This document shows positions 15,234 through 60,441 of a DNA stretch of 61,355 nt, in pieces (within the stretch, counting starts at the first letter, position 1; each line of letters opens with the position of its first letter). The notes under the pieces were generated by a model that saw nothing but the letters and a program-made list of their open reading frames with translations, did not search any database and was not told the origin of the DNA. The stretch lies in the IMG/VR virus record IMGVR_UViG_3300025115_000011, positions 1-61,355 of that record. One strand, given 5' to 3'. The stretch comes from a virus. Lineage: Duplodnaviria; Caudoviricetes. The position numbers were made by a program, and so were the translations under genes.

Positions 15234-16208
15234 ATGAAGATAATTAAAAAAGAATGCACTCGTGATGTGCCAAAAATAGCGTTATGCACCTTAGGTAGTA
15301 TTAATTGGGGGATGTTCAGACACCCAGACGACATGCGTCGTGTTTGCCGTGTGCTACATCGCAGTTTGAATAACATATTAGACTACCAAGACTTCCTTAG
15401 CATTCAATCTAAGTTAAGTAATGATGAAATCCGTCCGTTAGGTATCGGGGTTACTAACCTTGCATACTGGCACGCTAAACGTAATTTGAAGTACGGTGAG
15501 AAAGAAGCACTTGCTGAAGTAAAGACATGGATGGAACATCAAGCGTTTTACTTAACTGAAGCTAACGTAGAACTTGCTAAAGAACGAGGTGCTTGCTTAG
15601 ATAGCAGCAAAACACGGTACGGACAAGGGATTTTCCCATGGGAGCGTAGAGCTAAAGGGGTTAACGACTTAGTAGACTTTACTACAGACTCAGATTTGGA
15701 TTGGGAAGGTCTTCGTGAGAAGATGAAAGAGTTTGGAGTTCGCAATGCGACTACGATGGCAATTGCCCCAGTTGAATCGAGTTCAGTTGTTATTAACTCA
15801 ACAAACGGTATTGAGATGCCAATGTCCTTAATTTCGGTTAAAGAATCGAAAGCAGGGTCACTGGTACAAGTGGTTCCAGAATACCAAAAATTAAAGAACA
15901 AGTACCAATTGATGTGGGACCAAAAAGACTGTGCAGAGTATCTTAAAACTGCTGCGGTGTTAGCAGCATACGTAGACCAATCTATTTCGACTAATACGTT
16001 TTACAATCCGGTGTTCTTTCCAGAGAAAAAAATACCATCAACATTAATTGCAAAAAACTTAATGCTTTTCCATTATTGGGGAGGAAAAACGATTTATTAC
16101 TCACTCATAAATAAAAAAGGTGCTAAAGTAGTAAGCGAAGAGTCGACGGTTAGTTCAACTAACATTGAGCAGATGGATAATGACTCCTGCGAATCGTGCA
16201 AGTTATGA
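15234..16208 (+). CDS. nrdA: Ribonucleotide reductase alpha, C-terminal fragment (NrdA-b)
   Basis: IALCTLGSIN (second redox Cys), RPLGIG, MAIAPVESSS, DQSIS, KTIYY, C-terminal CESC. Confidence 0.95.
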   Translation: MKIIKKECTRDVPKIALCTLGSINWGMFRHPDDMRRVCRVLHRSLNNILDYQDFLSIQSKLSNDEIRPLGIGVTNLAYWHAKRNLKYGEKEALAEVKTWMEHQAFYLTEANVELAKERGACLDSSKTRYGQGIFPWERRAKGVNDLVDFTTDSDLDWEGLREKMKEFGVRNATTMAIAPVESSSVVINSTNGIEMPMSLISVKESKAGSLVQVVPEYQKLKNKYQLMWDQKDCAEYLKTAAVLAAYVDQSISTNTFYNPVFFPEKKIPSTLIAKNLMLFHYWGGKTIYYSLINKKGAKVVSEESTVSSTNIEQMDNDSCESCKL

Positions 16209-16253: not shown

Positions 16254-17006
16254 ATGGATTACAAGAAACATTACACGTTACTAATTGAGAGAAGTAAAAC
16301 TAGGGTACTCTCGGGGTATACAGAAAAACACCATATTATACCGAGATGCTTAGGTGGAACAAACGATTTAAGTAACATTGCGCTTTTAACTCCGGAAGAA
16401 CATTTTTTAGCACATCAACTGTTAGTGAAAATGTATCCAACTAGTCCTCCTCTAGCAAATGCGGTTGCAATAATGACAACCCATAATTCGTTAAACCGAG
16501 TTAACAACAAGCTCTTTGGATGGTTAAGAAGAAGATGTTCAGAGTATAGAAAACAGTGGTTAGAAGAAAATGGTCATCCGAAAGGGATGTTAGGTAAAAA
16601 ACACACAGAAGAGAAGAAAAAACAAATATCTGAGTCAGCAAAAAAGGCAATGGTTGACGCAGTAGGAGTAAAAGTGTATGCTTATAACTTAGATGGGTCA
16701 TTTTTTAAAGAGTATTCTACATTAACAGAGTGCGCCTTAGAGTTAAAAACTAATCCATCTAATGTTAAATACACCGCTGAAGGCAAATTTGGGTTTTGCA
16801 AAGGGAAGCAGCTTCGGCATACATTTAGTGAAAGAATTTCTCCTTATGTAAAACCGGTGCATCCTTTAAAAGGAAAGAAAAAAACAAAAGAACATATTGA
16901 AAACTTAAAAAAATCGATGGCGCATCGACCAAAAAGAACACCCGAACAGAATGCACAGCACAGTTTAAAAATGAAAGAATATCACGCAAGAAATAAATTA
17001 AAATGA
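16254..17006 (+). mobile_element. Free-standing HNH homing endonuclease (MobE-like position between nrdA and nrdB) with NUMOD3/NUMOD1-like domains
   Basis: EKHHIIPRCLGG...LTPEEHFLAH; GKKHTEE; VYAYNLDG. Confidence 0.85.
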
Positions 17007-17227
17007 ACACTTTACCCGAAACAGAATTTGTATTAGTTAGAAACAAAAGAGAAGAAAATGCAGTTGATGCATTTGGTCAAAATTATTCTTGTCATGTTCA
17101 AATCGTCAGGAACAATGGAAAATTTGACTTTAGCGACTTTCGTTATTTAAGGATGAGCAATAAGGGAAGTTATGAAGAATGGGTGCATAAGGACGAATTA
17201 GACATGTATCAGAAGGCGGCACTATGA
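17003..17227 (+). CDS. Hypothetical protein
   Basis: 74 aa, overlaps both neighbours by 4 nt. Confidence 0.55.
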   Translation: MNTLPETEFVLVRNKREENAVDAFGQNYSCHVQIVRNNGKFDFSDFRYLRMSNKGSYEEWVHKDELDMYQKAAL

Positions 17228-18324
17228 GTTTATCACAATACGATTTTAAGAAGCCAACAAACTACCTAAAGCGTAGGATGTTCCTGGACCCAGAAGGTCC
17301 TGTAACAGTTCAACGGTTTGAAGAATTTCGTCATCCTAAGTTGTCAGCAATGGAGACTACTGCACGAGGGTTCTTTTGGCAACCAGAGGAAATCAACCTT
17401 ACAAAAGATGCAGCAGATTTTAAAGAAGCAAGCGATGCAGTAAAGCACATCTTTACTAGCAACCTGTTACGACAGACAGCACTAGACTCGTTGCAAGGTC
17501 GAGCACCAACACAAATTTTCTTGCCTGTAGTAAGTCTACCAGAACTCGAAGCACTTGTTTTAACATGGGGCTTTTTCGAATCATGCATACACAGCCGTTC
17601 TTATAGTCACATCATCCGTAATATCTATAATGTACCTAAGGACGAGTTTAACAAAATCCACGACAATGAAGCCATTGTTAAAATGGCGTCAACAGTTGGG
17701 AAATACTACGACAATTTGTATGTGCTAAATTGTAAACGAGAGGTTGGGATTGATGTTCCTATCTACGAACATAAGAAAGCAATTTGGATGGCAATGCATG
17801 CCAGCTATGCACTAGAAGCATTACGTTTTATGGTATCGTTTGCTACTTCTCTTGCAATGGTAGAGAACAAAATCTTTATGGGCAATGGTAATATCATTAG
17901 TCTTATTTTACAAGATGAGTTACTGCACACTGAATGGACTGCGTATATCCTTAACAATATGGTTAAGGAAGATCCGGACTATGGGATTATAAAAGAAGAA
18001 ACAAAAGACGAAGTGTATGGATTATACATGGACGTTATCCGTGAGGAAAAAGAATGGGCAGACTACCTGTTCCAAAAAGGGCCGGTTATTGGTCTTAACG
18101 CAAACATCCTGCGAGATTTTGTTGATTACATGGCGTTAACCAAATTGAAGGAAATTGGTATTAAGTATATGGAACCTGCTCCAAAGACAACTCCGATTCC
18201 ATGGTTTAACAAGCATGTCTCAACAGATAAAAAGCAAACAGCATTACAAGAATCAGAGTCAACATCGTATGTTATTGGGGTTATGACATCTGAAATTAGT
18301 TACGAAGATTTACCGGAGATTTAA
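17224..18324 (+). CDS. nrdB: Ribonucleotide reductase class Ia beta subunit
   Basis: FWQPEE, ESCIHSRSY (radical Tyr), LEALRF, DELLH di-iron ligands. Confidence 0.95.
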   Translation: MSLSQYDFKKPTNYLKRRMFLDPEGPVTVQRFEEFRHPKLSAMETTARGFFWQPEEINLTKDAADFKEASDAVKHIFTSNLLRQTALDSLQGRAPTQIFLPVVSLPELEALVLTWGFFESCIHSRSYSHIIRNIYNVPKDEFNKIHDNEAIVKMASTVGKYYDNLYVLNCKREVGIDVPIYEHKKAIWMAMHASYALEALRFMVSFATSLAMVENKIFMGNGNIISLILQDELLHTEWTAYILNNMVKEDPDYGIIKEETKDEVYGLYMDVIREEKEWADYLFQKGPVIGLNANILRDFVDYMALTKLKEIGIKYMEPAPKTTPIPWFNKHVSTDKKQTALQESESTSYVIGVMTSEISYEDLPEI

Positions 18325-27753: not shown

Positions 27754-27797
27754 CCAAAACATTTGTAATTTTCTAAGAATTCAAGTATAAATATTAT

Positions 27798-27850
27798 TGT
27801 AATGACGCTGCATAGGGCGGGTCTTACATAACTTGCTTATTTTAAGGAGA
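27798..27850 (+). ncRNA. Structured 5' leader with ROSE-like RNA thermometer (hsp20)
   Basis: Stem TGTAATGAC/GTCTTACA around GCTGCATAGGGCGG; CUU-G-CUUA/UAAG-GAG hairpin occluding the SD. Confidence 0.65.
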
Positions 27851-27856
27851 AAACAA

Positions 27857-28306
27857 ATGAGAGCATTTTCAATTGATTTACCATCGCTTCACCGTGTAGC
27901 AATCGGTTTTGATCGTCAGTTTGACGAACTAATGCGTTATGCAAATAGCGTAACATCAGAACAAAAATATCCCCCACACAACGTAGTTAAGTACAACGAC
28001 ACCGATTATGCAATTGAGTTTGCAGTCGCTGGTTTTGACGAGTCCGAACTAGACGTTGAGATTGTTAAAGGGGTTCTAACTGTTACTGGGCAGCATACCG
28101 TTACTGAAGCAAAAGAGGATGACGAGACCGGAGAGTACTTGTACAAAGGAATTGGGCTGCGTAATTTCGTTCGTAACATCCCACTTGCAGAAAATTTCGA
28201 AGTGCAAGGTGCTACAGTTAAAAACGGTATCCTCACAGTTAATATCAAGCACATTATTCCGGACGAAGAAAAGCCACGCAAGGTTGCTATTAGCTTCTTA
28301 AAGTGA
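27857..28306 (+). CDS. Small heat-shock protein (Hsp20/IbpA-like)
   Basis: YPPHNVVK, AVAGF, YLYKGIGLRNFVR, ATVKNGILTV. Confidence 0.95.
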   Translation: MRAFSIDLPSLHRVAIGFDRQFDELMRYANSVTSEQKYPPHNVVKYNDTDYAIEFAVAGFDESELDVEIVKGVLTVTGQHTVTEAKEDDETGEYLYKGIGLRNFVRNIPLAENFEVQGATVKNGILTVNIKHIIPDEEKPRKVAISFLK

Positions 28307-28319
28307 TATAATGTAGTAC

Positions 28320-28352
28320 ATGTGCTAGGGCAGTGTGCTCTAGCACATTTTT
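28320..28352 (+). terminator. Rho-independent terminator
   Basis: ATGTGCTAGGGCA-GTG-TGCTCTAGCACAT plus T run. Confidence 0.75.
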
Positions 28353-28364
28353 AAAGGACATATA

Positions 28365-28676
28365 ATGCCTCACGCTGAACCAATCGAAAAAGTAAAAATT
28401 CAACAAAATATTAATGTCAAGCCGCCTTCGATGTACAAGGTAATCTATGTTAACGACAACGTAACTACTATGGAATTTGTGGTCGAGTCGTTAGTGGCAG
28501 TGTTTGAGTTGTCTCGAGCAGAAGCTGAAGAGATTATGATGATCATCCATGAGGAAGGGTCTGCTGTTGTTGCAGTTTTGCCTTACGAAATTGCTGAACA
28601 AAAAGGCGTCGAAGTTACAGTTCTTGCTAGGAATAACGGGTTTCCGCTAACCGTCCGATTGGAAATCGCCGAGTAG
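28365..28676 (+). CDS. clpS: ClpS N-end-rule adaptor
   Basis: PPSMYKVIYVNDNVTTMEFVV...IHEEG...EIAEQK...FPL. Confidence 0.92.
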   Translation: MPHAEPIEKVKIQQNINVKPPSMYKVIYVNDNVTTMEFVVESLVAVFELSRAEAEEIMMIIHEEGSAVVAVLPYEIAEQKGVEVTVLARNNGFPLTVRLEIAE

Positions 28677-34930: not shown

Positions 34931-34959
34931 TTGAAAATGTTGCGGTGCACAAGTATAAT
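34931..34959 (+). promoter_or_regulatory. sigma70 promoter with PhaR-like box in the spacer
   Basis: TTGAAA-17-TATAAT; spacer contains TGCGGTGCACAA (34941-34952). Confidence 0.6.
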
Positions 34960-34971
34960 GATAAATAGAAA

Positions 34972-35026
34972 GTAAGGTGCTGCATAGGGCGGGCCTTACA
35001 GAAATGTTCGCTTACTTTTAAGGAGA
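34972..35026 (+). ncRNA. Second copy of the structured leader with ROSE-like hairpin
   Basis: GTAAGGT/GCCTTAC stem around the identical GCTGCATAGGGCGG; UUC-G-CUUA/UAAG-GAG. Confidence 0.6.
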
Positions 35027-35031
35027 CTATT

Positions 35032-35244
35032 ATGAACACAAATTTTAAATTCCCAACCGCAGTAGAAGTCGTTGAGCAGGCTCGTAAGACTGCAACCACA
35101 ATCAGCACAATGATTCCTCAAGTTGAAATTAAAGATGCATACTCAATTATGACCAATGCACAATTAAATATTGCAACCACTTTTGCTGAAAAGTTTGATG
35201 AGTCAGTTAGCCAGTTCAAAAAGCAGTGGAAAATTACCGCTTAA
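35032..35244 (+). CDS. Small amphipathic helical protein, putative phasin-like
   Basis: 70 aa, all-helical pattern; the upstream PhaR-like box supports the call but sequence evidence is weak. Confidence 0.45.
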   Translation: MNTNFKFPTAVEVVEQARKTATTISTMIPQVEIKDAYSIMTNAQLNIATTFAEKFDESVSQFKKQWKITA

Positions 35245-35251: not shown

Positions 35252-35280
35252 TTGACATAAAACCCAAAATACGCTAATAT
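35252..35280 (+). promoter_or_regulatory. sigma70 promoter
   Basis: TTGACA-17-TAATAT. Confidence 0.6.
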
Positions 35281-35289
35281 ACTAGCACT

Positions 35290-35616
35290 ATGAAAAAGGT
35301 GCTTATATTAGCGTTTTTTATTGGCTATGCTCATGCGGCGCAACCGCTAAAGCAAGGTGTTTTTACTTGCGACATAGCAAAAAACTATAATCAGACTCAG
35401 CTGCTGGTTAAACAGCATCCCACCAAACCGCACAAAGTGGTGATAAACTGGGAAGGTCGTGATCGCATCTTGCACAACGAATTTACAACGTCCGGCGCAC
35501 TTCGGTATGAAGGTGCAGTGTCGAAACTCGTTTACATTCAAACACCTAAATATAGTTTTGTTCTAGATAACACTAGTATGAAACCAATCTTGACAAGATG
35601 TGTTAAGAATCAATGA
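35290..35616 (+). CDS. Exported hypothetical protein
   Basis: Signal peptide MKKVLILAFFIGYAHA. Confidence 0.7.
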   Translation: MKKVLILAFFIGYAHAAQPLKQGVFTCDIAKNYNQTQLLVKQHPTKPHKVVINWEGRDRILHNEFTTSGALRYEGAVSKLVYIQTPKYSFVLDNTSMKPILTRCVKNQ

Positions 35617-35658
35617 CTTACAATTTTGGTTGACATTTAATCCAACTTCAGGTATAAT
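35608..35658 (+). promoter_or_regulatory. Early sigma70 promoter with IHF-consensus site
   Basis: AATCAATGACTTA 35608-20; TTGACA 35630 - 17 nt - TATAAT. Confidence 0.8.
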
Positions 35659-35690
35659 CTGTTCATAGTTAAACAACCAGGAGCAAACAA

Positions 35691-36101
35691 ATGGCGTATA
35701 TGGATCAAACCAAAAAAGCTAAACTGGCCCCGAGCATTAAGGCTGTTCTCAAGAAGTACAAGATGAAAGGCTCTGTTGCGGTCAGCAACCACAGCACGTT
35801 GGTAGTCAATATCAAGTCCGGCGTCCTGGACATTATTGGCAACTATAACGCAACCGTTGCTCAACGCGACCCGACGGGCAATAAGCATATCAACAAGGCT
35901 ACAACCAGCCTGGATGTGAACCAGTATTGGATTAAAGACCATTACACTGGCAAGGTTCAGAAGTTCCTCACTGAACTGTACGATGCAATGTCGGTTGGTA
36001 ACTTTGATGATTCGGACTTGATGACTGATTACCACTCAGTTGGTTGGTATACTGACATTAATGTTGGGAAATGGAATCGCCCGTATGTTCTTGAGGCTTG
36101 A
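35691..36101 (+). CDS. Early hypothetical protein
   Basis: DDSDLMTDYHSVGWYTDINVGKWNRPY motif; SD. Confidence 0.75.
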   Translation: MAYMDQTKKAKLAPSIKAVLKKYKMKGSVAVSNHSTLVVNIKSGVLDIIGNYNATVAQRDPTGNKHINKATTSLDVNQYWIKDHYTGKVQKFLTELYDAMSVGNFDDSDLMTDYHSVGWYTDINVGKWNRPYVLEA

Positions 36102-36726
36102 ACTTACACTTATCTAAATGCCAACGGTTCGCCATACCAACATCAAAATACCGTTGACAATAAGGACAAAACACTTTAGGGCGGGACTTATTATGTTCCG
36201 CTTTTCTTTTTCTAAATTCTTCGCTATGAGTTTTTCCGAAGAACGGATTGTTAGCGCCAGCGGTTAACCCTTTCCTGTTTTTACGCATCAGAGCTATTGA
36301 CTCTTCGGTATGGTTTTTCCCAAACATATTGTTCTTTTCGCCTTGCGCTCTCGCGCTCATCTTTTGGCGCCATTCTACATTAAAAGGAGCACGTTTCTGT
36401 CCAGTGTATGATTCTGATAGCTGGTGCCGCAGCATCTCATAAATGCGCCCTGTAACTTTAACCTCTTTATTTTTACTTGGGCGAGATTGCTGCCAAGCAG
36501 CATACACCATCTTATGTTTAACAGCATCATCGACTATCTTAATGAGTAAGAGGTGACAGATAAAATGCTCACGGGCAGTCAATGATACTATGTTATCCGC
36601 GTTGTTACTGCCGCCTAACGATTTTGGTATAATGTGGTGACGTTCGGTATAGCCGAAAATAGTTCTTGACTTTGCACGTTCGATGATGTTATAGTACCAA
36701 TTATGATATTTGTTTTGTTTGAACAT
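36058..36726 (-). mobile_element. HNH homing endonuclease with NUMOD3 repeats and C-terminal CxxC
   Basis: ERHHIIPKSLGG...LTAREHFICH; FGKNHTEE, FGKTHSEE; CPYC. Confidence 0.88.
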
Positions 36727-36764: not shown

Positions 36765-36926
36765 ATGAAAACAGTGATTTTGGTAGCAGTGGTTGCAGCC
36801 CTTAGCGGCTGTGCCACTGCGGTAGTTGATGTTGCAGCAAGCACTACAATCTACGCAACGAAAGCAGTGGTCACAACGACATACGACGTAGCAACATATC
36901 CGTTCCGAGATAAAGAAGAAAAATAA
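36765..36926 (+). CDS. Small lipoprotein (53 aa, below the ORF-track cutoff)
   Basis: MKTVILVAVVAALSG-C lipobox. Confidence 0.65.
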   Translation: MKTVILVAVVAALSGCATAVVDVAASTTIYATKAVVTTTYDVATYPFRDKEEK

Positions 36927-36939
36927 TCACTAATTTTGG

Positions 36940-36968
36940 TTGACTTGCAACCTTTTTGGTTGTATAAT
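36940..36968 (+). promoter_or_regulatory. Early sigma70 promoter
   Basis: TTGACT-17-TATAAT. Confidence 0.8.
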
Positions 36969-37000
36969 CTGCACATCATAAACAAGTAAGGCGACTTAAA

Positions 37001-39718: not shown

Positions 39719-39990
39719 TTTACTACAAAATTCGCAGCAAGAAAAATCCAGAAATGTTTCGCCTAGCTGACGGTCGGTGGAACAAGTCGGGCAAAGTGTA
39801 TGACACGCTAGGGAAGCTGCGGACGCTTATTACAACTAAGATGAATTCTTATCACGACCACGAGCGTGCCGAAGTACAGTTTTGGGAGTTTGTTGAGTTC
39901 GAGGTAGTTGAGAAAAACGTTAAGCAACTGCACGAAGTTGTTGATCCCAAAAAGCTCTTTACTTTACTTTCGAAGCAGCAAAGAAGCTAA
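39715..39990 (+). CDS. Hypothetical protein
   Basis: ORF, ATGA overlap. Confidence 0.65.
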   Translation: MIYYKIRSKKNPEMFRLADGRWNKSGKVYDTLGKLRTLITTKMNSYHDHERAEVQFWEFVEFEVVEKNVKQLHEVVDPKKLFTLLSKQQRS

Positions 39991-40144
39991 GTCATTGATT
40001 TATATAGGAATGCAGTAAAACACTATTCTGTTTAAAATCAATGACTTAGCAAAAACGATCCGTTTACAGCAATTTTAGGGGTGTTCCGAAGGTCAAAGCA
40101 CACAGCAAAAAAGCGTTGAAATGTAAGTCATTGATTTATATAGG
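39986..40144. repeat. Cluster of three IHF-consensus sites in inverted and direct arrangement
   Basis: GCTAAGTCATTGATTT (39986) / AAATCAATGACTTAGC (40035) perfect 16-bp IR; TAAGTCATTGATTTATATAGG directly repeated at 39988 and 40124. Confidence 0.8.
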
Positions 40145-40168
40145 CCTGCAGAAAAATGTAGATTTCGG

Positions 40169-40197
40169 TTGACCTAAATGGTAATTTCCGGTATAAT
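40169..40197 (+). promoter_or_regulatory. Early sigma70 promoter
   Basis: TTGACC-17-TATAAT. Confidence 0.8.
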
Positions 40198-40229
40198 AGC
40201 ATCATACGCTAACAACACAGGAGCAACAA

Positions 40230-40634
40230 ATGGCAAACGTTCTTAACGGTCAATTTATTAACTGGTCCGCTATGACGGGTTCGCAGATTCGCGCCAAGGT
40301 TAAGGAACTGCAAGCCCTGGCGAAGCTGCAAGAGAAGGCTCCGGAAAAGGCTGCTGCCAAGATCGCTAAGGCTGCTGCCAAGAATGCGGTGAAGTCTGCT
40401 GCTAAGACGCAGAAGGCGGTTGCCAAGCCGGTGAAGAAGGCTGCTGCTGTTAAGTCCGGTGGTCGCACTTCTACTACGGAAAAGCGTATCCGCGCAATGT
40501 CCTGGATTCCGCAGAACGGTTTGCTTGCTCTGGACAAGCTGGATGCGATCCGCAAGATTATGGCAGAGTTTGATGTTCCGAAGAACTACGCTGCGAACTG
40601 GCTGAAGTTGGCTGCTCCCCAACCCGCTGTTTAA
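40230..40634 (+). CDS. Lys/Ala-rich histone-H1-like basic protein
   Basis: KAAAKIAKAAAKNAVKSAAK...KPVKKAAAVK. Confidence 0.7.
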   Translation: MANVLNGQFINWSAMTGSQIRAKVKELQALAKLQEKAPEKAAAKIAKAAAKNAVKSAAKTQKAVAKPVKKAAAVKSGGRTSTTEKRIRAMSWIPQNGLLALDKLDAIRKIMAEFDVPKNYAANWLKLAAPQPAV

Positions 40635-42409: not shown

Positions 42410-42579
42410 GGTGTTTAAAATCAATGACTTACAATCGTTACTGATTTAAACACCTTCTTTAGAATCAATGACTTACAAAATTCCTTTAATTTTAGCCCAG
42501 TTTTGTGCGTATTGATACGCAGAATTGCTGTAAACGACTGTAAATTTTGGTTGACTTTTAATCCAAATTCTGGTATAAT
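42410..42579 (+). promoter_or_regulatory. Two IHF-consensus sites, an inverted repeat and an early promoter
   Basis: AATCAATGACTTA at 42419 and 42463; GGTGTTTAAA/TTTAAACACC IR; TTGACT 42551 - 17 nt - TATAAT. Confidence 0.75.
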
Positions 42580-42615
42580 TTGTTCATAGTAAGTAACTTA
42601 ACAAGGAGAAGCAAA

Positions 42616-43742: not shown

Positions 43743-44411
43743 ATGAAAACCAAACTGATTGCTGTTGCTGTTGCTGCTGTTATGATGACTGCCTGCGCTT
43801 CTAATCCGGCGCCCAAGGTTGATCCGGTACAAGCAATGCGAACAGCAGAAGCCAAGGCAGTTCTTGATACTGCCCCGTCCTGGTACATGAATGGTACCCC
43901 GGCCACCGCAGACCATATGTTTACCGCAGGCACGGCTGTTAGCCGAGACCTGTCAATGGCTGTGAAAAAGGCCACAATGGATGCTCAAGCTAAGATTGCA
44001 GAGTACATCCGGGCAGACGTTGATGCTTACACCAAGGTTCACAAGCAAGATGTCAACGGAGCATACAACGAAAATACCGAAGTCCTTGTACGCAAGTTAG
44101 TAAACGAAATCCAACTGTCGCGGGGAACCGTGGTTCAAAAGGTTGCTTACTCTGAAGCCGGCAGTTTCCGTGTGTATGTGCAGATTCGTTACCCAGCTCC
44201 TAATATCGAGCGAGCTGTTGCTGCAACTAACACCTACGACGGCCCGACTGCTCGAGAGCGAAAGCTTGAGGCTGAACTAAACCAACGTAAGGAAGAAGCC
44301 CGTAAGGCGAAAGAAGTTGCACCGGTAGACGTAGGCGGCATTGTAATTAAGGGGATAGAAGCAAGTCCCGAATCTAAGCCTCTTAACTTGGATTCCAAGG
44401 AAGAGAACTAA
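43743..44411 (+). CDS. LPP20-like lipoprotein
   Basis: Lipobox MTA-C; PSWY; A..KA..DA..KIA pattern. Confidence 0.75.
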   Translation: MKTKLIAVAVAAVMMTACASNPAPKVDPVQAMRTAEAKAVLDTAPSWYMNGTPATADHMFTAGTAVSRDLSMAVKKATMDAQAKIAEYIRADVDAYTKVHKQDVNGAYNENTEVLVRKLVNEIQLSRGTVVQKVAYSEAGSFRVYVQIRYPAPNIERAVAATNTYDGPTARERKLEAELNQRKEEARKAKEVAPVDVGGIVIKGIEASPESKPLNLDSKEEN

Positions 44412-44419
44412 ATATTGCA

Positions 44420-44662
44420 ATGCAACAAGAACTTGAACAAGAAATACTACAAATAACCGCAGCTCTCGGAGAATCACAAAAAGAATATGAGGCTCTGCGG
44501 TTACGCTATTCGAACGAATGGAATCTCCGCACTCCCGATGCAAATAACGAGTTCGTGAAACAGTTAGGTGATCTCGCGGCTGAAATGACCCATTACCAAA
44601 AACTGTTTAAAGAGTTATCGATTAAGTATTCTACATTAGTTTTAGGTTCGGTGCCTGAATAA
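44420..44662 (+). CDS. Hypothetical coiled-coil protein
   Basis: 80-aa ORF. Confidence 0.55.
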   Translation: MQQELEQEILQITAALGESQKEYEALRLRYSNEWNLRTPDANNEFVKQLGDLAAEMTHYQKLFKELSIKYSTLVLGSVPE

Positions 44663-47397: not shown

Positions 47398-48075
47398 ATG
47401 CGTCTTTTTGAACTACAACAAACTGTTAGTAAACCACAAGCTATTGATAATATCATATCAGTTATCCTTAGGGATTGCCAACCGTATCTACAGTTGATAG
47501 GTGGGTTAACTGATCCATCCAGATATTTGCTCAGAGGTATGGTAGAGATACCGTCGAAAGATCAATGGCACAAGTATACACAACCTTACACTACACACCC
47601 AGACCGTAAGTTCAGAGACACAAATGCACGGGTTGGGCAATTAGCAGATGACTGGTTTTTAAAAACAATCGGATGGCGTGCCAGAACTAACAATGCGCTA
47701 TTCTGTGCCGGCTTTGCTAGTGCAACACACGACTATGGTGAGACCTGCGCGATATTTCCAATTGGTAATATTGAGTATCTGTGGAGTGAAAAGGTACTCG
47801 ACTTAACGTTTGATTTACACCAGCTTGTTTATTTTGGCGACGAGGGGACTCCAGATAAACTAAAACCACAACAAGATACTGAATCGTTAGCAAAGAAAGT
47901 TAATGCGTTACTCAGTAAAGGTGCATGGCACTTTAATGAAGGATTCGACTTATACTGGAAAAAGCATAGACGTAAAGAAATGATTATCCGTTGCCAAAAA
48001 TACTACGCTATTCCGCTAGAGAGAAATATGGATAACATTAGTTTTGACGAAGTATTGATGAGAGCAAGTCAATGA
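47398..48075 (+). CDS. ART-like paralog 2 (MRLFELQ)
   Basis: CQPY, LRG, RDT, WF, YG..IFPIG..YLWS, KEMII. Confidence 0.6.
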   Translation: MRLFELQQTVSKPQAIDNIISVILRDCQPYLQLIGGLTDPSRYLLRGMVEIPSKDQWHKYTQPYTTHPDRKFRDTNARVGQLADDWFLKTIGWRARTNNALFCAGFASATHDYGETCAIFPIGNIEYLWSEKVLDLTFDLHQLVYFGDEGTPDKLKPQQDTESLAKKVNALLSKGAWHFNEGFDLYWKKHRRKEMIIRCQKYYAIPLERNMDNISFDEVLMRASQ

Positions 48076-48467
48076 GAGCAACTGAATTTTTAACCGAATC
48101 TATCATTAAAACTAATAAAGGGTGGCAGCATTCCGGGTTTGGATATAAAAATAATCCAGTTTATCCATTGCCTCGGTGGAGTGTATTTAATAGTGGGTCA
48201 AGGAATAAAGAAGGGTCGTGGGAGGATATATTACACTACTTTCGATTCTTAGACGACAATTATGCAACTGCAATGCTTGATATAACAGGTGATGAGATAG
48301 CAACTGTTTTGTGTTTGCAAGGACACACTGACAAAAAACAAGAATTAGAAAAAATGAAAATTGAACTTAAACTTAAGAACTCTAATTTTCAAACATGGTC
48401 TGAAGTCTTTAACAAGTTCAAAGAAAATAGTAAAAAAGAACGAGCAACTAGATTGGGCGGAATATGA
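48072..48467 (+). CDS. Tagged hypothetical protein (MRATEFLTE)
   Basis: ORF with tag. Confidence 0.7.
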   Translation: MRATEFLTESIIKTNKGWQHSGFGYKNNPVYPLPRWSVFNSGSRNKEGSWEDILHYFRFLDDNYATAMLDITGDEIATVLCLQGHTDKKQELEKMKIELKLKNSNFQTWSEVFNKFKENSKKERATRLGGI

Positions 48468-49078
48468 GAGCAACTGAATTTTTAAGAGAAGACATCGAAG
48501 ACCAGCAAAAAGTTTGGTCAATGATACAACAAAATTGCCAACCGTTCATAAATGAGATCGGCGGGGTTGAGAAATTATTTTCTTTGCCTATATATCGAGG
48601 AAGTTTTGATTCTCAAAACAACACTAGCATAAGAGAAATTCCAGTATTGCCAAATCGTAAACCACGAAATACACAGGCAGAGTGGCACAAAGCTGCCGAC
48701 GAATGGTTTGCATCTACTACTGGTGTCCTTTTCCGCAGTCACGCAATTTTTGCAGATGGAAACAAGGAAGTAGGCGATAGTTACGGCCGTGGATACAGTG
48801 AAATAGTTATCCCAATCAGACAATTTAACTATTGCTGGTCTGATATTATCCGTGATATGACTCTCACATTAGAACGCACACCTCGTGAAGACGATGAAAG
48901 TGAAGGTGATTTTGTGTGGAATATCTTAGACGAAGGTGGTTACAGGTTTAATAGTGGTTTGGCTGACGCTGCACAATCTGAATGTGAAATTATGATCAAC
49001 TGTGAAAAAGTATATCTCATTAATCCGGGCTTCTTCTATATGATAAAAAACAGATTGCAGGACGGGTCAATTAAATGA
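48464..49078 (+). CDS. ART-like paralog 3 (MRATEFLRE)
   Basis: CQPF, YRG, RKPRNT, RS..IF, YG, YCWS, CEIMI. Confidence 0.6.
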   Translation: MRATEFLREDIEDQQKVWSMIQQNCQPFINEIGGVEKLFSLPIYRGSFDSQNNTSIREIPVLPNRKPRNTQAEWHKAADEWFASTTGVLFRSHAIFADGNKEVGDSYGRGYSEIVIPIRQFNYCWSDIIRDMTLTLERTPREDDESEGDFVWNILDEGGYRFNSGLADAAQSECEIMINCEKVYLINPGFFYMIKNRLQDGSIK

Positions 49079-49752
49079 GAGCAAAAGAATTTTTAAAAGA
49101 AGAATACACACCAAAGGATATTGAGGATTTCTTTACTAACTGCTCGGAGTATTTTTCTTATAATAAAAATCCTTTAGTTAATATGCTATACCGCGGTGAC
49201 TACGGTAACATTCGCAAGGACAATTTTTGGATGAACCAACGCAATGTGTTACAAGGCCGCAAACCAGTTGACACTGACGAGTTTGTACATACCATCTTAA
49301 ATGATTTGTTTTCTACCGCGTTTAATTTTCCGTTCCGCAGCGGGATGATGTGTTCTGGATCCCCTGGAGAAGCAAGTCAATACGGCCGCGTGTCTATTGT
49401 TATTCCGTGCAATGGGTACACACTTTGTTACTCACCGAAGTATGAGGATTTATTCAAATCAATACCATCTACGGTGTACGATTACTTAGAGTACACTCAT
49501 TATGAAGTACACGACGGTACTCCAGAGCAAGCTAACGCAGAGAAAAGGATACGCTCAATTATTACCAGATTGTTTAAAGAAGGCAACTATGTAGCTGGAC
49601 CACAGCATACAAACGATGCTGCGATGTCAACCAACGAAGTAATGATATACCCAACTGATTACTCAGAATTGCAATACTACGCATTCTCCGAACAGTTTTG
49701 GAGCGCAACAGTAGTGCCGATGATTAGAGAGAGATTTTATGCGAGCAAGTGA
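49075..49752 (+). CDS. ART-like paralog 4 (MRAKEFLKE)
   Basis: YRG, RKPVDT, RS, A.QYG, NEVMI. Confidence 0.6.
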   Translation: MRAKEFLKEEYTPKDIEDFFTNCSEYFSYNKNPLVNMLYRGDYGNIRKDNFWMNQRNVLQGRKPVDTDEFVHTILNDLFSTAFNFPFRSGMMCSGSPGEASQYGRVSIVIPCNGYTLCYSPKYEDLFKSIPSTVYDYLEYTHYEVHDGTPEQANAEKRIRSIITRLFKEGNYVAGPQHTNDAAMSTNEVMIYPTDYSELQYYAFSEQFWSATVVPMIRERFYASK

Positions 49753-50533
49753 TTTTTTAACTGAACTCGAAGTTACTCCTTATCAGTATAGAGACTTAGG
49801 GATTAATAAAGCAATGGACTTTCTCAATGGACATTGCAGGCAAGCATTGGCTACTATTAAAAATCCAATTTGGCGTGGAATGAAAAATCACAAAGAGGAC
49901 ATTGTCTTCGCTGACCCGTCAACCGGTAAACGTATGTCTCAGAATACTACAAATCAGTATACAGCATTAATCGATTCTTCTCCGTATTTCAAGGGTTGGC
50001 CAAAACGTAGTAGTAGTTTTGTATGTTCAAGTAACCGAAGTTATGCCTCACAGTTTTCTAAAGGGTATGATGCAAGTTCTACTCTGTATGCTATTTTCCC
50101 GTTTGATGGAGTTAAGATTGCAGTATGCCCAACTAGAGATATGTGGCAAGTTCCAATTAGTATCCCTGCGTTTAACAAAAAGTTCAACCATGGCGGCTGG
50201 GGAGACGACTTGGATATGTTTAACGGTTGGCTAACAAACGAAGTTGGCATTACTGCTGACTCTGAAGGTAACCTTAAATTTGACGGGTATCAGTTAGGGT
50301 TATTTGCAAAAGATCACAACTTGCAAAAACACGAGATTGTTCCGATATTACAGAAAGCATTGTCACCTCAGAGAGCAGGGTTTAAGTTAGTTACCATTGG
50401 TGAGTTTGCGTCTGGACAGTTTAACGATAACGAGCTGTGGATTGGCGGCCCGGTAATTTGTATTCGCGAACCTCTATACAAACAGTTTTTAAATGCTTAT
50501 GAAAAACAAGGACAAATAAATGCGAGCAAGTGA
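49739..50533 (+). CDS. ART-like paralog 5 (MRASDFLTE)
   Basis: WRG, RMSQNT, KRSSSFVCSS...A..F, IFP, NELWI. Confidence 0.55.
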   Translation: MRASDFLTELEVTPYQYRDLGINKAMDFLNGHCRQALATIKNPIWRGMKNHKEDIVFADPSTGKRMSQNTTNQYTALIDSSPYFKGWPKRSSSFVCSSNRSYASQFSKGYDASSTLYAIFPFDGVKIAVCPTRDMWQVPISIPAFNKKFNHGGWGDDLDMFNGWLTNEVGITADSEGNLKFDGYQLGLFAKDHNLQKHEIVPILQKALSPQRAGFKLVTIGEFASGQFNDNELWIGGPVICIREPLYKQFLNAYEKQGQINASK

Positions 50534-51164
50534 TTTTACTAACGAAGAGCAATTAACTGAGATACCATCGTCGTTTGTTAATAAGGTAGTAGACAAAACA
50601 CAATGGGGAGCACCTGGCACAGGTCACAAGACTCCTCCAAAAGGACAAACTGCATCAGTTTGGCAACACATGTCCGACCCAACAACTGTAGTTAAGCTTG
50701 TTGGCGGCGGTGCTATGAAAAACCTTAAAGATAAACATAAGCAGGCAGCAATTGCATTTGTGGATTTTCTTGTACATCACGGTAAAGAAAGCCAGCATCT
50801 TCCGATTGTGCACGGTATTAACGTAGATGATCCTGAGGTAGTGCAAATCAAAGTCGAAGCACTAAAACCTTTTAAAGGCTATCGATATGAGCAGCTCGCA
50901 GGTTCGTTAGCAGATTTAGCTGATGTTCCGACTAGTCCTCGGTATCAAGACTTGGTTAACGAACATCTTAAAGGGCTAGGATTACACAAGAAAAATTCAG
51001 CAGCTGGTATAGTAAAATGTGTGATGTTGTTAAACAAGTATGCAAAAGAGTATTCAGATAAGTATAATTTAGACAAGTTTGTACTGGATTTGCATGAAGG
51101 TAATTGGATGGTAACAAACGACGGAGTTATTGTTGCCGTTGATCCGTGGTTTGCAGGGTGGTGA
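50520..51164 (+). CDS. Tagged protein-kinase-like protein (MRASDF)
   Basis: G.TASV, VVK, DLHEGNWM, VAVDP. Confidence 0.7.
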   Translation: MRASDFTNEEQLTEIPSSFVNKVVDKTQWGAPGTGHKTPPKGQTASVWQHMSDPTTVVKLVGGGAMKNLKDKHKQAAIAFVDFLVHHGKESQHLPIVHGINVDDPEVVQIKVEALKPFKGYRYEQLAGSLADLADVPTSPRYQDLVNEHLKGLGLHKKNSAAGIVKCVMLLNKYAKEYSDKYNLDKFVLDLHEGNWMVTNDGVIVAVDPWFAGW

Positions 51165-51165
51165 T

Positions 51166-51600
51166 ATGAAAGCCTCTGAATTTATTACTGAAGACGATGT
51201 TATTAAAATTAAATTGCCAGACGAGAGCATAGCAAAGGCGTGGATCGAGAAAGTATACAAGATGTATCCATACACCTGGGAGAATAACCACGTTATGGTA
51301 TGGGGAGAAGGCGAAGCACAGCAGTTAGCAATGTTTGAACTTGTACCAAGTAAATCTAAGAAAAATGCAGTAGAAGTAAAATGGTTTAGTGCATACCCAA
51401 TGAGAGCAGGTGTGGGATCACGTGCGATGGGTGAGTTGCAAAAAATAGCAAGAGAAGATGGTATTGCCTTAACATTATTTCCCTGGGACCATGGACAAGT
51501 TAGCCAAAGTAAGTTAATGAAGTTTTACAAAGGTGTTGGGTTTAAGCCAACTACAAAAGCATCTAAGAATATGTATTGGGATCCAAATGAGATTTCTTGA
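51166..51600 (+). CDS. Tagged GNAT acetyltransferase (MKASEFITE)
   Basis: RAGVGSRAM (motif A), KFYKGVGF (motif B). Confidence 0.75.
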   Translation: MKASEFITEDDVIKIKLPDESIAKAWIEKVYKMYPYTWENNHVMVWGEGEAQQLAMFELVPSKSKKNAVEVKWFSAYPMRAGVGSRAMGELQKIAREDGIALTLFPWDHGQVSQSKLMKFYKGVGFKPTTKASKNMYWDPNEIS

Positions 51601-52054
51601 GATCATGCAAAACACTAGAAATCTGCGAATTGAGAAATTAGTAGAGTGGGCTAAGGAAAGAAAGCAGTTAACAGAATCTGATGACTTCTCAGTTGAGGTC
51701 AATGAGTATAGACAATTTATAGAGAAGTTCTTGACTGATGTTTGTGATCTTAAAGTAGGTAACGAGTATTATCCTGTGATGTTGTTCACCCAACCATCAG
51801 CTAAAATAATAGAAGTTAATGTTCCGGCAAACTCGATAACCCTTGTGGGAATAGACAAACAAGGAGATTTCGGTTTTTTGTTTAAAGGTCGAAGAGTTAA
51901 GTTTCCTAAGTACTACGAAGAGCAAGACGATCAACTTCCTTATTTTATGTCTACTACCGTGTTTGTTGGGCCAAGTGAAGTAAATCAATTTTTTACTATG
52001 CTTAATTTACAATTTGCAGGTCGATGGAAGCTAATACAGAAGGAAGTTAAATGA
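51587..52054 (+). CDS. Hypothetical protein (MRFLEI)
   Basis: ATG at 51587; internal QLTE. Confidence 0.65.
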   Translation: MRFLEIMQNTRNLRIEKLVEWAKERKQLTESDDFSVEVNEYRQFIEKFLTDVCDLKVGNEYYPVMLFTQPSAKIIEVNVPANSITLVGIDKQGDFGFLFKGRRVKFPKYYEEQDDQLPYFMSTTVFVGPSEVNQFFTMLNLQFAGRWKLIQKEVK

Positions 52055-52716
52055 GAGCAGACGAATTTTTAACTGAAGGACGAGGGCATCCTGTTATTGT
52101 GGTCGACGTCCAGCCCGAGTACTCTGGTATGAACGACGGTGAAGAAAGTTCGGTGTTCCCAGAAATCATAAAATTCGTAGCAATCAACCAAACCGGACCT
52201 GTGCTAATGTTTGTTAATGCTGAGGACCAAGGAATGTCGGGCGACACAGTATTTGATGTACAACGATACTGGGAAGACACTCTGCTTGAAATGGGTTACG
52301 GTAAACCAGAAGAAGAATATTGGGACGAAGATGATGAATATCATTATACTGAAGCAGAGAGTCCAATTGATTGGCGCCGTTATGAGATTGTTGATAAAGG
52401 ATATGGATTCTTCAGAAGTTTCATGGATCAAGGGGTAGACGACGCTACAATTATTAAAATGATCCGCTACCTGTATCAACATAAATTAAACGATGCAAGG
52501 CAGCTAGATTATGATGATTATGTTGCAATAATGGGCAGTGACAGATTGCAGGATGAAAACTTTACCATTAACTGGACAAGCGTTGCACAATTAAAACGAT
52601 TTAACGGTGCTTATATTGTTGGTGGTGGTAGAAACGAATGTTTGCGTGAAGTTGAGTTGCTAATGAATGCGTTTAACATTAAATATCGTCGCATCGACTC
52701 TTTAGTCTACGGGTAA
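52051..52716 (+). CDS. Tagged isochorismatase/nicotinamidase-like cysteine hydrolase (MRADEFLTE)
   Basis: VIVVDVQ (Asp), DKGYG (Lys), GG..NECL (Cys). Confidence 0.65.
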   Translation: MRADEFLTEGRGHPVIVVDVQPEYSGMNDGEESSVFPEIIKFVAINQTGPVLMFVNAEDQGMSGDTVFDVQRYWEDTLLEMGYGKPEEEYWDEDDEYHYTEAESPIDWRRYEIVDKGYGFFRSFMDQGVDDATIIKMIRYLYQHKLNDARQLDYDDYVAIMGSDRLQDENFTINWTSVAQLKRFNGAYIVGGGRNECLREVELLMNAFNIKYRRIDSLVYG

Positions 52717-52725
52717 ATACATATT

Positions 52726-53112
52726 ATGAGAGCAAATGAATTTTTAATAGAGTATGTAACAAAAGAAGACCTTAGGGCTCTAACGATTTACTTAGATCGT
52801 TTTTATAGTACACTTGGGTTAGATATCGAGTTTACCAGACATTTCTTGGACCGAGTAAACGATCCAAGGAACGGTAAGGATATCACAGTCCAAGAACTAG
52901 CAGATTTATTCAAGAAAGAATATGAGAAGTACGGTCCTGTAATAGCAAAGCTTCCAGACGACTCTCAAGCGGTACTAAAGGATTTATCTACTAAAATTAA
53001 TGTACCGTTTGCTATAGACGATAATCCGAAGTCAAAAGATAAAGACATTGTGCCAGTTACAGTAATGCGTAAAAAAGATTTTAGAACGTCGAATCGAGAG
53101 TTTAAGGTATGA
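52726..53112 (+). CDS. Tagged protein, possible BECR-type RNase fold (MRANEFLIE)
   Basis: FTRHFLDR...VTVMRK pattern; fold is an inference. Confidence 0.5.
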   Translation: MRANEFLIEYVTKEDLRALTIYLDRFYSTLGLDIEFTRHFLDRVNDPRNGKDITVQELADLFKKEYEKYGPVIAKLPDDSQAVLKDLSTKINVPFAIDDNPKSKDKDIVPVTVMRKKDFRTSNREFKV

Positions 53113-54239
53113 GAGCAAAAGAATTTTACATTGAACACACACTCCTTGAGGCCGCATACCAAGGCAACATCGGTATGATGGAGATGTTTAAGTTTAAACA
53201 GAAAGCCTCGCCGGAACAATGGGCAGAGCTACAAAAACTAATCAGTAAAAAACTGTTTAAAGCAGCATGGACGTTAATACAAAGTGTTACAGGTGTAACG
53301 TTGCATCAAAAAGGGCTTACAGAAGGCGGCTGGGCAAGCACACTAACGCAAGGTACAAAGATTACGCCGCAGTTAGTTCAGTATGTAATGAAACTCTTAC
53401 AGCAAGAATTTGTGCCATTACTTAACACCTTCTTAAAGCGTAATGGGTTAGGTGAAACTGAAGTTTCTGCCCCAGGCGGTAGTGCTACTTATTACGAACG
53501 AGATTTAGAAAAGCAACCCAACAAAGAATACGGCGATGTTGATGTTCAGTTTCATATCCCACGCATTGAAGGAACAACTAACAATGCAAACATGAACATC
53601 TACAAAAAAGCAATTAAAGAGTTTTGCGACGGCACAAACAATTACTCAACTGATAACGGCACTAATATTATTTTGCGTGTTGGACAAGACTATGTCCAGG
53701 TTGATCTGGTTTATTCATATTATGAAAACAAAGAATGGACAAATGCATTGCGCCCGGAGTGGAATTTAAAAGGGGTTTTGGCGAACTCACTATATAGTTC
53801 ATTCGGGGAAGCATTAAGTATTAGTTTTGGTGGCGGCCATGGTGTCCAAGTTAAAACCCAAAATGGCCAAGTTGTTCCGTTTAGAACAGTTAAAGATGTT
53901 AAACTACATACAATCACTAATAATCCGAAAACGTGGGCAGTTGATATTGCAAAATACTTTGGTGGTAAGATGAACTCGCAACTACAAAAGTATCCGGGAC
54001 TACTAGATGAAGTTCGTGTTAGCGACATTGTTAATTCGTTTAAGGGCATTGCACAAAGTTTAAATAGGCCAGAGCTACTACAACAAACAAAAGACATCTA
54101 TCTTGCTAAAATAGAAAAGGCTGCAAGTAGTTCTAAGTTCGATAAAGCGGCTACACCGGAGATGCAAGCAAAAGCAGAAAAAACAAAGCATATGCTCTTA
54201 ACTAAGTCGCAAGAAATTGCACAACTATTTGGAGTTTAA
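53109..54239 (+). CDS. Tagged nucleotidyltransferase (MRAKEFYIE)
   Basis: GGSA...YGDVDV...VQVDL; internal LTE-GG as in 1456. Confidence 0.7.
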   Translation: MRAKEFYIEHTLLEAAYQGNIGMMEMFKFKQKASPEQWAELQKLISKKLFKAAWTLIQSVTGVTLHQKGLTEGGWASTLTQGTKITPQLVQYVMKLLQQEFVPLLNTFLKRNGLGETEVSAPGGSATYYERDLEKQPNKEYGDVDVQFHIPRIEGTTNNANMNIYKKAIKEFCDGTNNYSTDNGTNIILRVGQDYVQVDLVYSYYENKEWTNALRPEWNLKGVLANSLYSSFGEALSISFGGGHGVQVKTQNGQVVPFRTVKDVKLHTITNNPKTWAVDIAKYFGGKMNSQLQKYPGLLDEVRVSDIVNSFKGIAQSLNRPELLQQTKDIYLAKIEKAASSSKFDKAATPEMQAKAEKTKHMLLTKSQEIAQLFGV

Positions 54240-54240
54240 A

Positions 54241-55160: not shown

Positions 55161-55171
55161 TAAATATAGCT

Positions 55172-55561: not shown

Positions 55562-55564
55562 ATA

Positions 55565-59883: not shown

Positions 59884-59940
59884 TCAATGACTTACTTGTA
59901 CTAAAATTTGGTTGACTTTTACCCCAAATTCCGGTATAAT
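59882..59940 (+). promoter_or_regulatory. Early sigma70 promoter with IHF-consensus site
   Basis: AATCAATGACTTA 59882; TTGACT 59912 - 17 nt - TATAAT. Confidence 0.8.
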
Positions 59941-59970
59941 ACATACATCATAAACAAGCAGGAGTAGAAA

Positions 59971-60409: not shown

Positions 60410-60441
60410 AACATCATACGCTAACAAAACAGGAGCAGCAA

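Follow-up and report, generated by a model that had tools for sequence, protein, structure and literature searches.

The host carbon-storage regulator PhaR (AniA) binds operators that have been described in Cupriavidus necator/Ralstonia eutropha and in Sinorhizobium meliloti as TGC-RNY-GCA palindromes with AT-rich arms bearing TG/CA, which overlap the core promoter, the position expected for repression. The R. eutropha motif is given as YTKNTGCRNYGCANMAR in the accessible part of PMC12849132, and the accessible part of PMC12542648 gives the S. meliloti core as YGCRNYGCR, supported by electrophoretic mobility shift assays in which binding is lost on mutation, and places the motif in 50 promoter regions, well beyond the phasin genes. 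Phasins (Phasin_2, PF09361, and others), for which PhaR control is presumed, are small, largely helical and moderately amphipathic proteins. The second described system to be considered here is that of the short ROSE-like RNA thermometers of the two-hairpin type of Pseudomonas ibpA, in which a stable hairpin I is followed by a 3' hairpin where U(U/C)GCU pairs with the Shine-Dalgarno (SD) sequence (PMC3669281, accessible part).

Here we describe a viral locus in which both kinds of element precede one small gene. The locus lies at positions 34931-35244 of IMG/VR record IMGVR_UViG_3300025115_000011 (Duplodnaviria; Caudoviricetes), which was analysed over its whole length of 61,355 bases (the window) and has a CheckV completeness of 17%, implying a genome of roughly 360 kb. 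A single public sequencing run contains this DNA, a DNA run with the label freshwater metagenome that may be its source, and no RNA run containing it is listed. Judging from the sequences compared, the locus is one instance of a module conserved among related uncultured jumbo phages of freshwater, a clade with genomes of ~320-360 kb; the module consists of a gene for a small helical protein, in a shared slot, behind a composite control region. The predicted promoter, operator and leader are real and conserved, and are built from two host-type regulatory parts; the PhaR operator and the ROSE-like leader are both of known kinds, and are found recombined in a virus before virus-specific proteins. 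An earlier note on this DNA had suggested a phasin-like mini-gene with a PhaR-like operator inside its promoter, and the promoter TTGAAA-17-TATAAT, the box, the TAAATA element, the leader and the open reading frame (ORF) of 70 aa are all found where it had placed them. The predicted features are as follows:

34931-34936, + strand: -35 hexamer TTGAAA of a sigma-70-type promoter, P1 (11/12 matches in the promoter scan, 17-nt spacer)
34938-34952, no strand: PhaR-type palindromic operator TGTTGC-GGT-GCACAA (extended 21-mer at 34935-34955)
34954-34959, + strand: -10 hexamer TATAAT of P1
34962-34967, + strand: TAAATA box, a proximal -10-like element (P2), 4 nt before hairpin I
34972-34999, + strand: leader hairpin I, with a covarying lower stem and the invariant top GCUGCAUAGGGCGGG (34979-34993)
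35008-35025, + strand: leader hairpin II, with the ROSE motif UCGCU (35008-35012) opposite the SD sequence AAGGAG (35020-35025)
35032-35244, + strand: ORF70, a small protein of 70 aa starting at ATG 35032, with two helices in the AlphaFold2 model

A PhaR-type palindrome in the promoter

The sequence TGCGGTGCACAA at 34941-34952 is part of a 15-bp palindrome (34938-34952) that fills the spacer of the TTGAAA-17-TATAAT promoter and also extends over what would be the -35 region of the proximal TAAATA element, whose use as a -10 (P2) we infer. The earlier note had recognised in this box the motif of PhaR, and the comparison with host sequences agrees with this: the window box, ATGTTGCGGTGCACAAG, has one mismatch to YTKNTGCRNYGCANMAR, and it is indistinguishable from the palindromes that precede Burkholderiales phasin genes. 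The degenerate IUPAC box TGCRNYGCASMA, which occurs once in the window, is not significant when taken alone, because 46 of 100 dinucleotide shuffles contain at least one. A position weight matrix (PWM) was built from 42 boxes found upstream of Burkholderiales phasin genes. When run over the window, it gives 19.0 bits for 34935-34955 and 19.3 bits for 44410-44430, followed by 10.0 bits for the third-best site, and the median of the host sites is 20.3 bits. A score of at least 19.3 bits was reached in only 7 of 300 random windows, and from the random-window scan the chance rate of a 19-bit site is estimated at about 3.5e-5 per 90 nt.

The host sample was taken from the order that holds a metagenome-assembled genome (MAG) titled Polynucleobacter, in which one of the phage cassettes described below was found. 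It comprises the Phasin_2 genes from 41 genomes, with the locus of one unpublished genome omitted, that is, 31 phasin genes. TGC-N3-GCA is present at most 250 nt upstream of 27 of these 31 Burkholderiales genes (for example ATGTTGCGCTGCAACAA and ATTGTGCGGTGCAGCAA), against 1.4 on average and at most 5 in shuffles, and the N4 spacing is present upstream of one. One phasin gene of the Polynucleobacter-titled MAG has two such boxes, TGTTGC-GTC-GCAACA and ATTGC-AGT-GCAACA.

The top-scoring site of the window, AAATATTGCAATGCAACAAGA at 44410-44430, also reaches the quality of a PhaR operator. It lies across the stop codon of the ORF at 43743-44411 and the start codon (ATG, 44420) of a helical ORF of 80 aa without a PHROG match. 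No promoter is evident at this site, which is absent from the homologous regions of three related loci (L083, L086 and L113).

Conservation of the cassette and of its operator

Part of the ORF70 leader is repeated at 27807-27850, and the 15-mer common to both copies, GCTGCATAGGGCGGG, has exactly two occurrences in the window. Scanning IMG/VR with the exact hairpin I 15-mer gave 29 stretches, 19 with the whole cassette and 10 in unrelated GC-rich contexts. All 19 cassettes have the same layout, with a promoter-like region, a TAAATA, TATAAT or TACAAT box, the hairpin, UYG(U)CU...AGGA and the ATG, and the lower stem of their hairpin varies in sequence yet still pairs. The gene after the cassette encodes a protein of 82-94 aa starting MFT or MFA (the MFT family) in 18 of the 19, and an Hsp20-family small heat-shock protein (sHSP) in the remaining one (L084), as in the second copy of the window. 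The same 15-mer was found in four stretches among 185,579 species genomes, two of them in unrelated contexts (L112 and L114). The other two are a 6-kb contig in the Polynucleobacter-titled MAG (L115) and a 70-kb contig in a MAG titled Haliscomenobacter (L113); both have phage-like genes and carry near-identical copies of the phage cassette with an MFT gene, and they are probably phage DNA misbinned into bacterial MAGs. After de-duplication there remained 14 distinct small-protein cassettes, that of the window included, and two sHSP cassettes.

In 8 of the 14 small-protein cassettes, a box of the form TG(Y)TGC-N3-GCA(S)(M)A precedes the hairpin 15-mer by 44-58 nt, scores 13.5-22.4 bits with the PWM and overlaps the promoter -35 and spacer. 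The half-sites TGC and GCA are constant and the central triplet varies (GGT, GCC, CCT, GGC, ACT, ATT, AAT). Neither sHSP cassette has a PhaR-type box, the best PWM score at the window's sHSP copy being -11.8. The cassettes hold all the sites that reach 14 bits in 189 kb of related loci, and the complete 354-kb record G007 has ten sites with the core pattern, of which the only intergenic one with extended arms is the cassette site. The excess of YTGCRNYGCAR in G007 (10 vs 3 in the reversed control) was given no weight, since the sites are mostly in coding regions; this pattern misses the window box (GCAC).

A further copy was reached by another route. One member of the ORF70 family, P0007 (41% identity to ORF70), is located on a 1.4-kb metagenome contig (L170) that was picked by protein similarity alone, with no DNA motif. 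Upstream of this homologue lies AAATGTTGCGCCGCAACAATA, with the perfect palindrome TGTTGC-GCC-GCAACA (20.7 bits), and the contig has, in order, the C-terminus of a fibre-like gene homologous to that of the window, the box, TAAATA, the hairpin, UUGCU with AAAGGAG, and the gene; box and gene are therefore co-conserved. The earlier note had proposed looking for the box upstream of homologues, and in L170 a perfect box is indeed kept there.

The position of the slot gene is also shared. In four relatives (L086, L087, L092 and L097) it follows a gene homologous to the 372-aa fibre-like gene of the window. In L094 and L097 the MFT gene follows homologues of UDP-glucose dehydrogenase and of a 303-aa protein, and in L087 and L095 it precedes a phrog_10415 homologue, which is the place of ORF70 in the window; in some relatives the slot gene is 2-3 kb from a homologue of the prohead protease. 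In L170 and in each of the 16 aligned cassettes, hairpin I is preceded at a distance of 4-9 nt by the proximal box (TAAATA, TATAAT or TACAAT). One 323-kb record, G001, shares the phrog_10415 gene and is without ORF70.

The N-terminal domain of PhaR (PF07879) was found in none of six phage records (the window and five related ones), and in the genus to which the Polynucleobacter-titled MAG belongs, 28 of 31 genomes have PhaR (PF07879). Because the ORF70 and MFT proteins are unrelated (see below) yet share the box, the factor that binds it would be external to the slot gene; two unrelated proteins could not both autoregulate through a single specificity. Since no phage PhaR was found, the slot proteins are unrelated and PhaR is present in most genomes of that genus, host PhaR is the simplest candidate for binding the box, and we consider it probable that the box is a PhaR operator. 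The likeness to the host operators lies in the palindrome, the arms and the overlap with the core promoter. As a candidate operator, the box differs from them in being phage-borne and single rather than paired, as is common in host phasin promoters, in having the N4 spacing in one third of its palindrome-bearing versions, and in preceding a gene that encodes no recognisable phasin.

A ROSE-like leader shared with a small heat-shock gene

The second copy of the leader and the gene behind it are the following:

27786-27856, + strand: second leader copy, with TATAAATA, hairpin I with the same 15-mer (27807-27821), UUGCU and the SD sequence; no PhaR-type box
27857-28306, + strand: phage sHSP, Hsp20/IbpA-like (PF00011, E 3.6e-17)

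The structured leader of the earlier note was confirmed and could be taken further, in that hairpin I covaries across 15 sequences and the leader is ROSE-like and shared with the phage sHSP gene. When the ORF70 leader is folded alone, its stability is unremarkable (z -1.55). Across the 15 distinct sequences, 90.3% of the pair cells of hairpin I are paired, against 31-50% in slid controls; both sides have changed in 5 of 11 pairs, and the covariation score was reached by 0 of 500 shuffles. The top of the hairpin is invariant in the aligned set because this set was chosen by the 15-mer, and the L170 hairpin provides independent variation, with two compensatory changes in the upper stem (CUGC/GCGG to CCGA/UCGG). 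The covariance model R1 gives 47.4 bits for the ORF70 leader, 41.9 for the sHSP leader and 31.1 for L170. In the window it finds only the two copies, and it finds one copy in each of three large relatives; the sole match in G001, which lies inside a Clp-ATPase ORF, was set aside as due to chance.

The top Rfam match is ROSE_3 (RF02523), with 21.2 bits for the ORF70 leader, 20.8 for the sHSP leader and 25.0 for that of L088. Like the ROSE_3/Pseudomonas ibpA leaders, the phage leaders are 5' untranslated regions some 60-65 nt long in which hairpin I is stable and rich in GC, and in both the pairing of U(U/C)GCU with the SD sequence has a bulged G and leaves the AUG free; the phage leaders differ in the top of hairpin I, which is enlarged and invariant (GCUGCAUAGGGCGGG), and in their scores of 21-25 bits against a gathering score of 43. 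U(U/C)GCU is present in 7 of the 16 aligned cassettes, and L170 has UUGCU. The sHSP leader (27806-27859) also gives 25.4 bits with the Rfam motif freshwater-2 (RF02980; gathering score 49.9), which like this leader has a hairpin followed by ...AAGGAGAAAACAAAUG. The ORF70 leader has no freshwater-2 match, and a literature search for text on this motif found none.

Bacterial counterparts of the sHSP leader are found in the genus of the Polynucleobacter-titled MAG, in two genomes of which the sHSP has 42-43% identity to the phage protein. The upstream regions of the sHSP genes in these two genomes have CTTGAAA-14-CCTTAAAT, then a hairpin GAUGCC...GGGUC and then ACUUGCUUAAUUUAAGGAGAAAAC, which is almost the same as ACUUGCUUAUUUUAAGGAGAAAAC in the phage sHSP leader; CCTTAAATAG is found in sHSP promoters of that genus at the place equivalent to TAAATA. 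CTTGAAA-14-CCTTAAAT resembles a sigma-32 promoter. With ROSE_3 these bacterial leaders reach 31.6 and 26.2 bits, also below the gathering score of 43. On this evidence a ROSE-like ancestry of the phage leader appears quite likely. The association of the ROSE family with small heat-shock genes holds for the copy at 27786-27856 and is departed from by the ORF70 copy. Small heat-shock proteins are encoded by other phages, for example as hsp20 of T4-like cyanophages. The phage gene described here shares with these the Hsp20 family, and differs in that a host-type ROSE-like leader is retained and has been copied to a second, unrelated gene. In the sHSP leader, the predicted probability that the SD sequence is unpaired rises from 0.29 at 10 °C to 0.73 at 45 °C.

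The sHSP gene is followed by a homologue of a ClpS-like 'ATP-dependent protease' adaptor (28365-28676, phrog_27368), so that 27786-28676 looks like a small proteostasis cluster.

Two unrelated protein families in one slot

In the AlphaFold2 models, ORF70 has helices at residues 10-26 and 31-65 (pLDDT 80.7), and the MFT protein has three, at 4-22, 26-69 and 73-88 (pLDDT 73.7). In both models a short helix precedes a long one, and no relatives with a known function were detected for ORF70. The ORF70 family consists of viral and metagenomic proteins of 70-81 aa, with 14 cluster representatives at E<=1e-3 among 1.84 billion; its alignment (A2) has 15 sequences, and its closest member, P0002, is 76% identical to ORF70 and lies on a 359-kb contig. 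The MFT family (alignment A3) is much larger, with 2116 proteins at E<=1e-3, many of them on contigs of ~348 kb, and the module is therefore ecologically widespread and not a curiosity of one contig. Aligning A2 with A3 in hhalign gives a probability of 0.9%, and the two families are not detectably related. An ORF70 relative was found in none of five MFT-bearing records, two of them at least 92% complete, and no MFT relative was found in the window, which is 17% of its genome. Searching 50,697 phage records by tblastn with ORF70 and one MFT protein gave no match, and among the same number of records no DNA similarity of the region to cultured phages was found.

The earlier note had called the ORF amphipathic and helical. 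Its helical character stands with the two modelled helices, and its amphipathic character is supported weakly: the maximal hydrophobic moment of 0.52 is as high in 27 of 500 shuffles and, although within the range of five host phasins, is generic and does not discriminate. Like the phasins, ORF70 is small and largely helical. It is shorter than the phasins that were sampled (70 aa, where these have about 180-200 aa) and has no significant sequence or profile similarity to them. In Pfam, ORF70 has no phasin match at E<=1 and its best match is UBA_2 (E 0.1), and the PHROG search was negative for phasins. In the ESM Atlas, ORF70 has no feature match, and the structure matches are generically helical. 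For the MFT protein, the three nearest named ESM-Atlas clusters are all related to polyhydroxyalkanoate (PHA), namely Phasin_2 (13% of members; 0.86), PHB_acc (0.85) and PHA_synth_III_E (0.84), which lie below the bar of 0.9 and are taken as leads only. A literature search for phage-encoded phasins, or for phasins as viral auxiliary genes, returned nothing relevant.

Proposed mechanism

The explanation that best combines these results, a PhaR-type operator and a ROSE-like leader before a small helical slot protein, we hold with slightly better than even confidence. Transcription would start from P1 and from the proximal TAAATA -10, with the 15-bp palindrome TGTTGC-N3-GCAMCA overlapping the spacer and the -35. 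Host PhaR bound to the palindrome would shut the gene off in cells without nascent polyhydroxybutyrate (PHB) granules, and granules, by titrating PhaR, would release it. The mRNA would begin at or just before the stable 5' hairpin, which may stabilise it, followed by the weak hairpin II in which U(U/C)GCU would mask the SD sequence, so that translation may also be gated by temperature or stress. The product would then act at PHB granules or protein aggregates, in a phasin-like or chaperone-like manner. This last step is the weakest one, as the role at granules or aggregates is suggested by the regulation and not by the protein sequence, and a granule-associated, phasin-like role can be proposed only tentatively.

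The fullest form of the proposal seems to us rather doubtful. It would have one gene wired to two host sensors, PhaR for PHB granules and a ROSE-type thermometer for temperature or stress. The product, which would reshape the carbon store or the proteostasis of the infected host, would belong to a class of proteins, new and specific to viruses, that coat granules or aggregates and among which ORF70-like and MFT proteins are interchangeable.

If host PhaR does control the promoter, a lytic jumbo phage would be reading a carbon-storage regulator of its host through a borrowed operator, and PHB physiology would join the things that phages sense. The hosts would then have to possess PhaR, and the operator would therefore offer an independent handle on host assignment for this uncultured phage clade. 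With the leader, if correctly identified, the ROSE-like type would be known from viruses and from genes other than those of sHSPs.

Evidence against the proposal and alternative explanations

A number of observations weigh against this proposal. In 4 of the 14 small-protein cassettes (L088, L097, L107 and L113) the palindrome is replaced at the equivalent position by an N4 variant with half-sites one base wider, and two more (L087 and L095) have no box. Host promoters have two boxes 50-59 bp apart in 12 of the 27 box-bearing phasin genes, and the phage has one. The host link to Polynucleobacter consists of one 6-kb contig in one MAG, and a near-identical cassette is found in the Haliscomenobacter-titled MAG. 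As for the leader, all ROSE_3 scores of the phage sequences are below the gathering score, UYGUCU takes the place of U(U/C)GCU in 9 of the 16 aligned cassettes, and the predicted probability of an unpaired SD sequence in the ORF70 leader hardly changes, from 0.43 at 10 °C to 0.47 at 45 °C; whether the ORF70 leader would actually sense temperature we consider evenly balanced on these predictions.

For the protein, the phasin similarity expected in the earlier note did not appear. Five ORF70-family members were without any phasin-family match at E<=10, A2 reached a probability of 0.4% in hhalign when compared with 31 phasins, and neither sequence and profile searches of the PDB nor a Foldseek fold search (E<=1e-3) found anything for ORF70. 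Two of four MFT proteins reach Phasin_2 (PF09361) at no better than E 0.027-0.041, in differing registers, and the hhalign probability for MFT against the phasins is 0.5%. PHA depolymerase and synthase families were found in none of seven related phage records, two of them at least 92% complete, which leaves the PHA mobilisation suggested by the earlier note speculative.

The strongest of the alternatives accepts the PhaR-type operator and gives its product another role, as a proteostasis helper acting with the sHSP, as an anti-PhaR or host-takeover factor, or as an accessory protein of the virion or its assembly that is only coupled to host physiology in its timing. We rate this somewhat below an even chance. 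It accounts for the lack of significant phasin similarity, for a leader held in common with the sHSP gene, which itself precedes a ClpS-like gene, and for the distance of 2-3 kb between the slot gene and the prohead-protease homologue in some relatives; the PhaR motif in 50 S. meliloti promoter regions (PMC12542648, accessible part) would also allow for targets of other kinds. Against it can be set that phasins are themselves small helical proteins with little sequence conservation, and that the three named clusters nearest to the MFT protein in the ESM Atlas are PHA-related, albeit at 0.84-0.86 and so below the 0.9 bar. Phasins are, moreover, the strongest and most general targets of PhaR. 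That the palindrome serves another regulator, either a phage repressor or a different host factor recognising TGC-N3/4-GCA, with a phasin likeness due to convergence or coincidence, we think unlikely. A phage regulator would serve a single gene, as a complete 354-kb genome holds the extended site only once, and the slot proteins are excluded as the shared binder, since two unrelated families have one box. In addition to the core, the arms AATGTTGC...GCAACAAT match the host boxes, with PWM scores of 19-22 bits against the host median of 20.3. What speaks for such a regulator is the N4 spacing, found in 4 of 14 cassettes and rare at host phasin genes (1/31), together with the single box per cassette and the size of these phages (320-360 kb), whose mostly unannotated genomes could hide a novel regulator.

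Two further explanations dispense with a dedicated operator. The element could be a T4-type middle or late promoter with a TATAAATA-like box and a 5' stabilising hairpin, the palindrome and the ROSE likeness being without a regulatory role. Indeed, in both copies of the window hairpin I is preceded at 4-5 nt by (G/T)ATAAATA, the ORF70 copy carrying GATAAATA, a 7/8 match to TATAAATA; TATAAATA is present in L084, L087 and L095, and all three of its plus-strand sites in the window are just upstream of genes. This explanation is nevertheless improbable, since the window has no excess of TATAAATA (5 sites vs 4.8 expected), many cassettes have TATAAT or TACAAT instead, and it would explain neither a palindrome that is conserved in position and variable at its centre nor why the SD hairpin is nearly identical to that of sHSP leaders in the genus of the Polynucleobacter-titled MAG. 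Finally, a good sigma-70 promoter might by chance hold a TGC-rich 12-mer, and the IUPAC motif does appear somewhere in 46 of 100 window shuffles, but the position of the box is conserved in 8 of 14 cassettes and in L170, where the flanking DNA has diverged past blastn detection, and the expectation for a 19-bit site (about 3.5e-5 per 90 nt) makes such a coincidence barely credible. The PhaR-operator reading remains the one we favour for the box.

Other features of the window

Besides many genes without known function, the window encodes a ribonucleotide reductase, a tail-spike-like protein, UDP-glucose dehydrogenase, homing endonucleases and a ClpP-like prohead protease. The large subunit of the ribonucleotide reductase is split into an N-terminal part at 12591-14114 (profile positions 60-497 of 975) and a C-terminal part at 15234-16208 (504-795 of 975), with two ORFs without a PHROG match between them, and nrdB (17224-18324) is preceded by an HNH/NUMOD homing endonuclease gene at 16254-17006. 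A second homing endonuclease, of the HNH-NUMOD3 type and also assigned to phrog_655, is encoded at 36058-36726 on the minus strand and overlaps the end of the phrog_10415 gene (35691-36101). A large paralogous family of head-to-tail genes, whose products all start MRA(K/N/T)EF(L/I), occupies 2226-5976 and 47398-57469; the three members searched against PHROGs (53109-54239, 55565-57469 and 48072-48467) gave no match.

The gene after ORF70 (35252-35616) has its own promoter, TTGACA-17-TAATAT, and encodes a 108-aa protein that has an N-terminal signal-peptide-like segment, MKKVLILAFFIGYAHA, and is without a match in Pfam or PHROGs. The near-consensus sigma-70 promoters at 35612-35669, 36922-36979, 40162-40233, 42533-42590, 59894-59951 and 60363-60445 form a family, having the upstream extension AATTTTGGTTGAC...GGTATAAT in common, and some of its members run into a common leader ending CAGGAGCA(A/G)CAAATGG. 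These are likely the early promoters of the phage, distinct from the ORF70 promoter. A repeat motif, T(T/A)AAATCAATGACTTA, occurs at 35601-35620, 40029-40048, 42412-42431 and 42456-42475, and inverted at 39988-40020 and 40124-40156; its copies, in both orientations, cluster immediately upstream of strong promoters.

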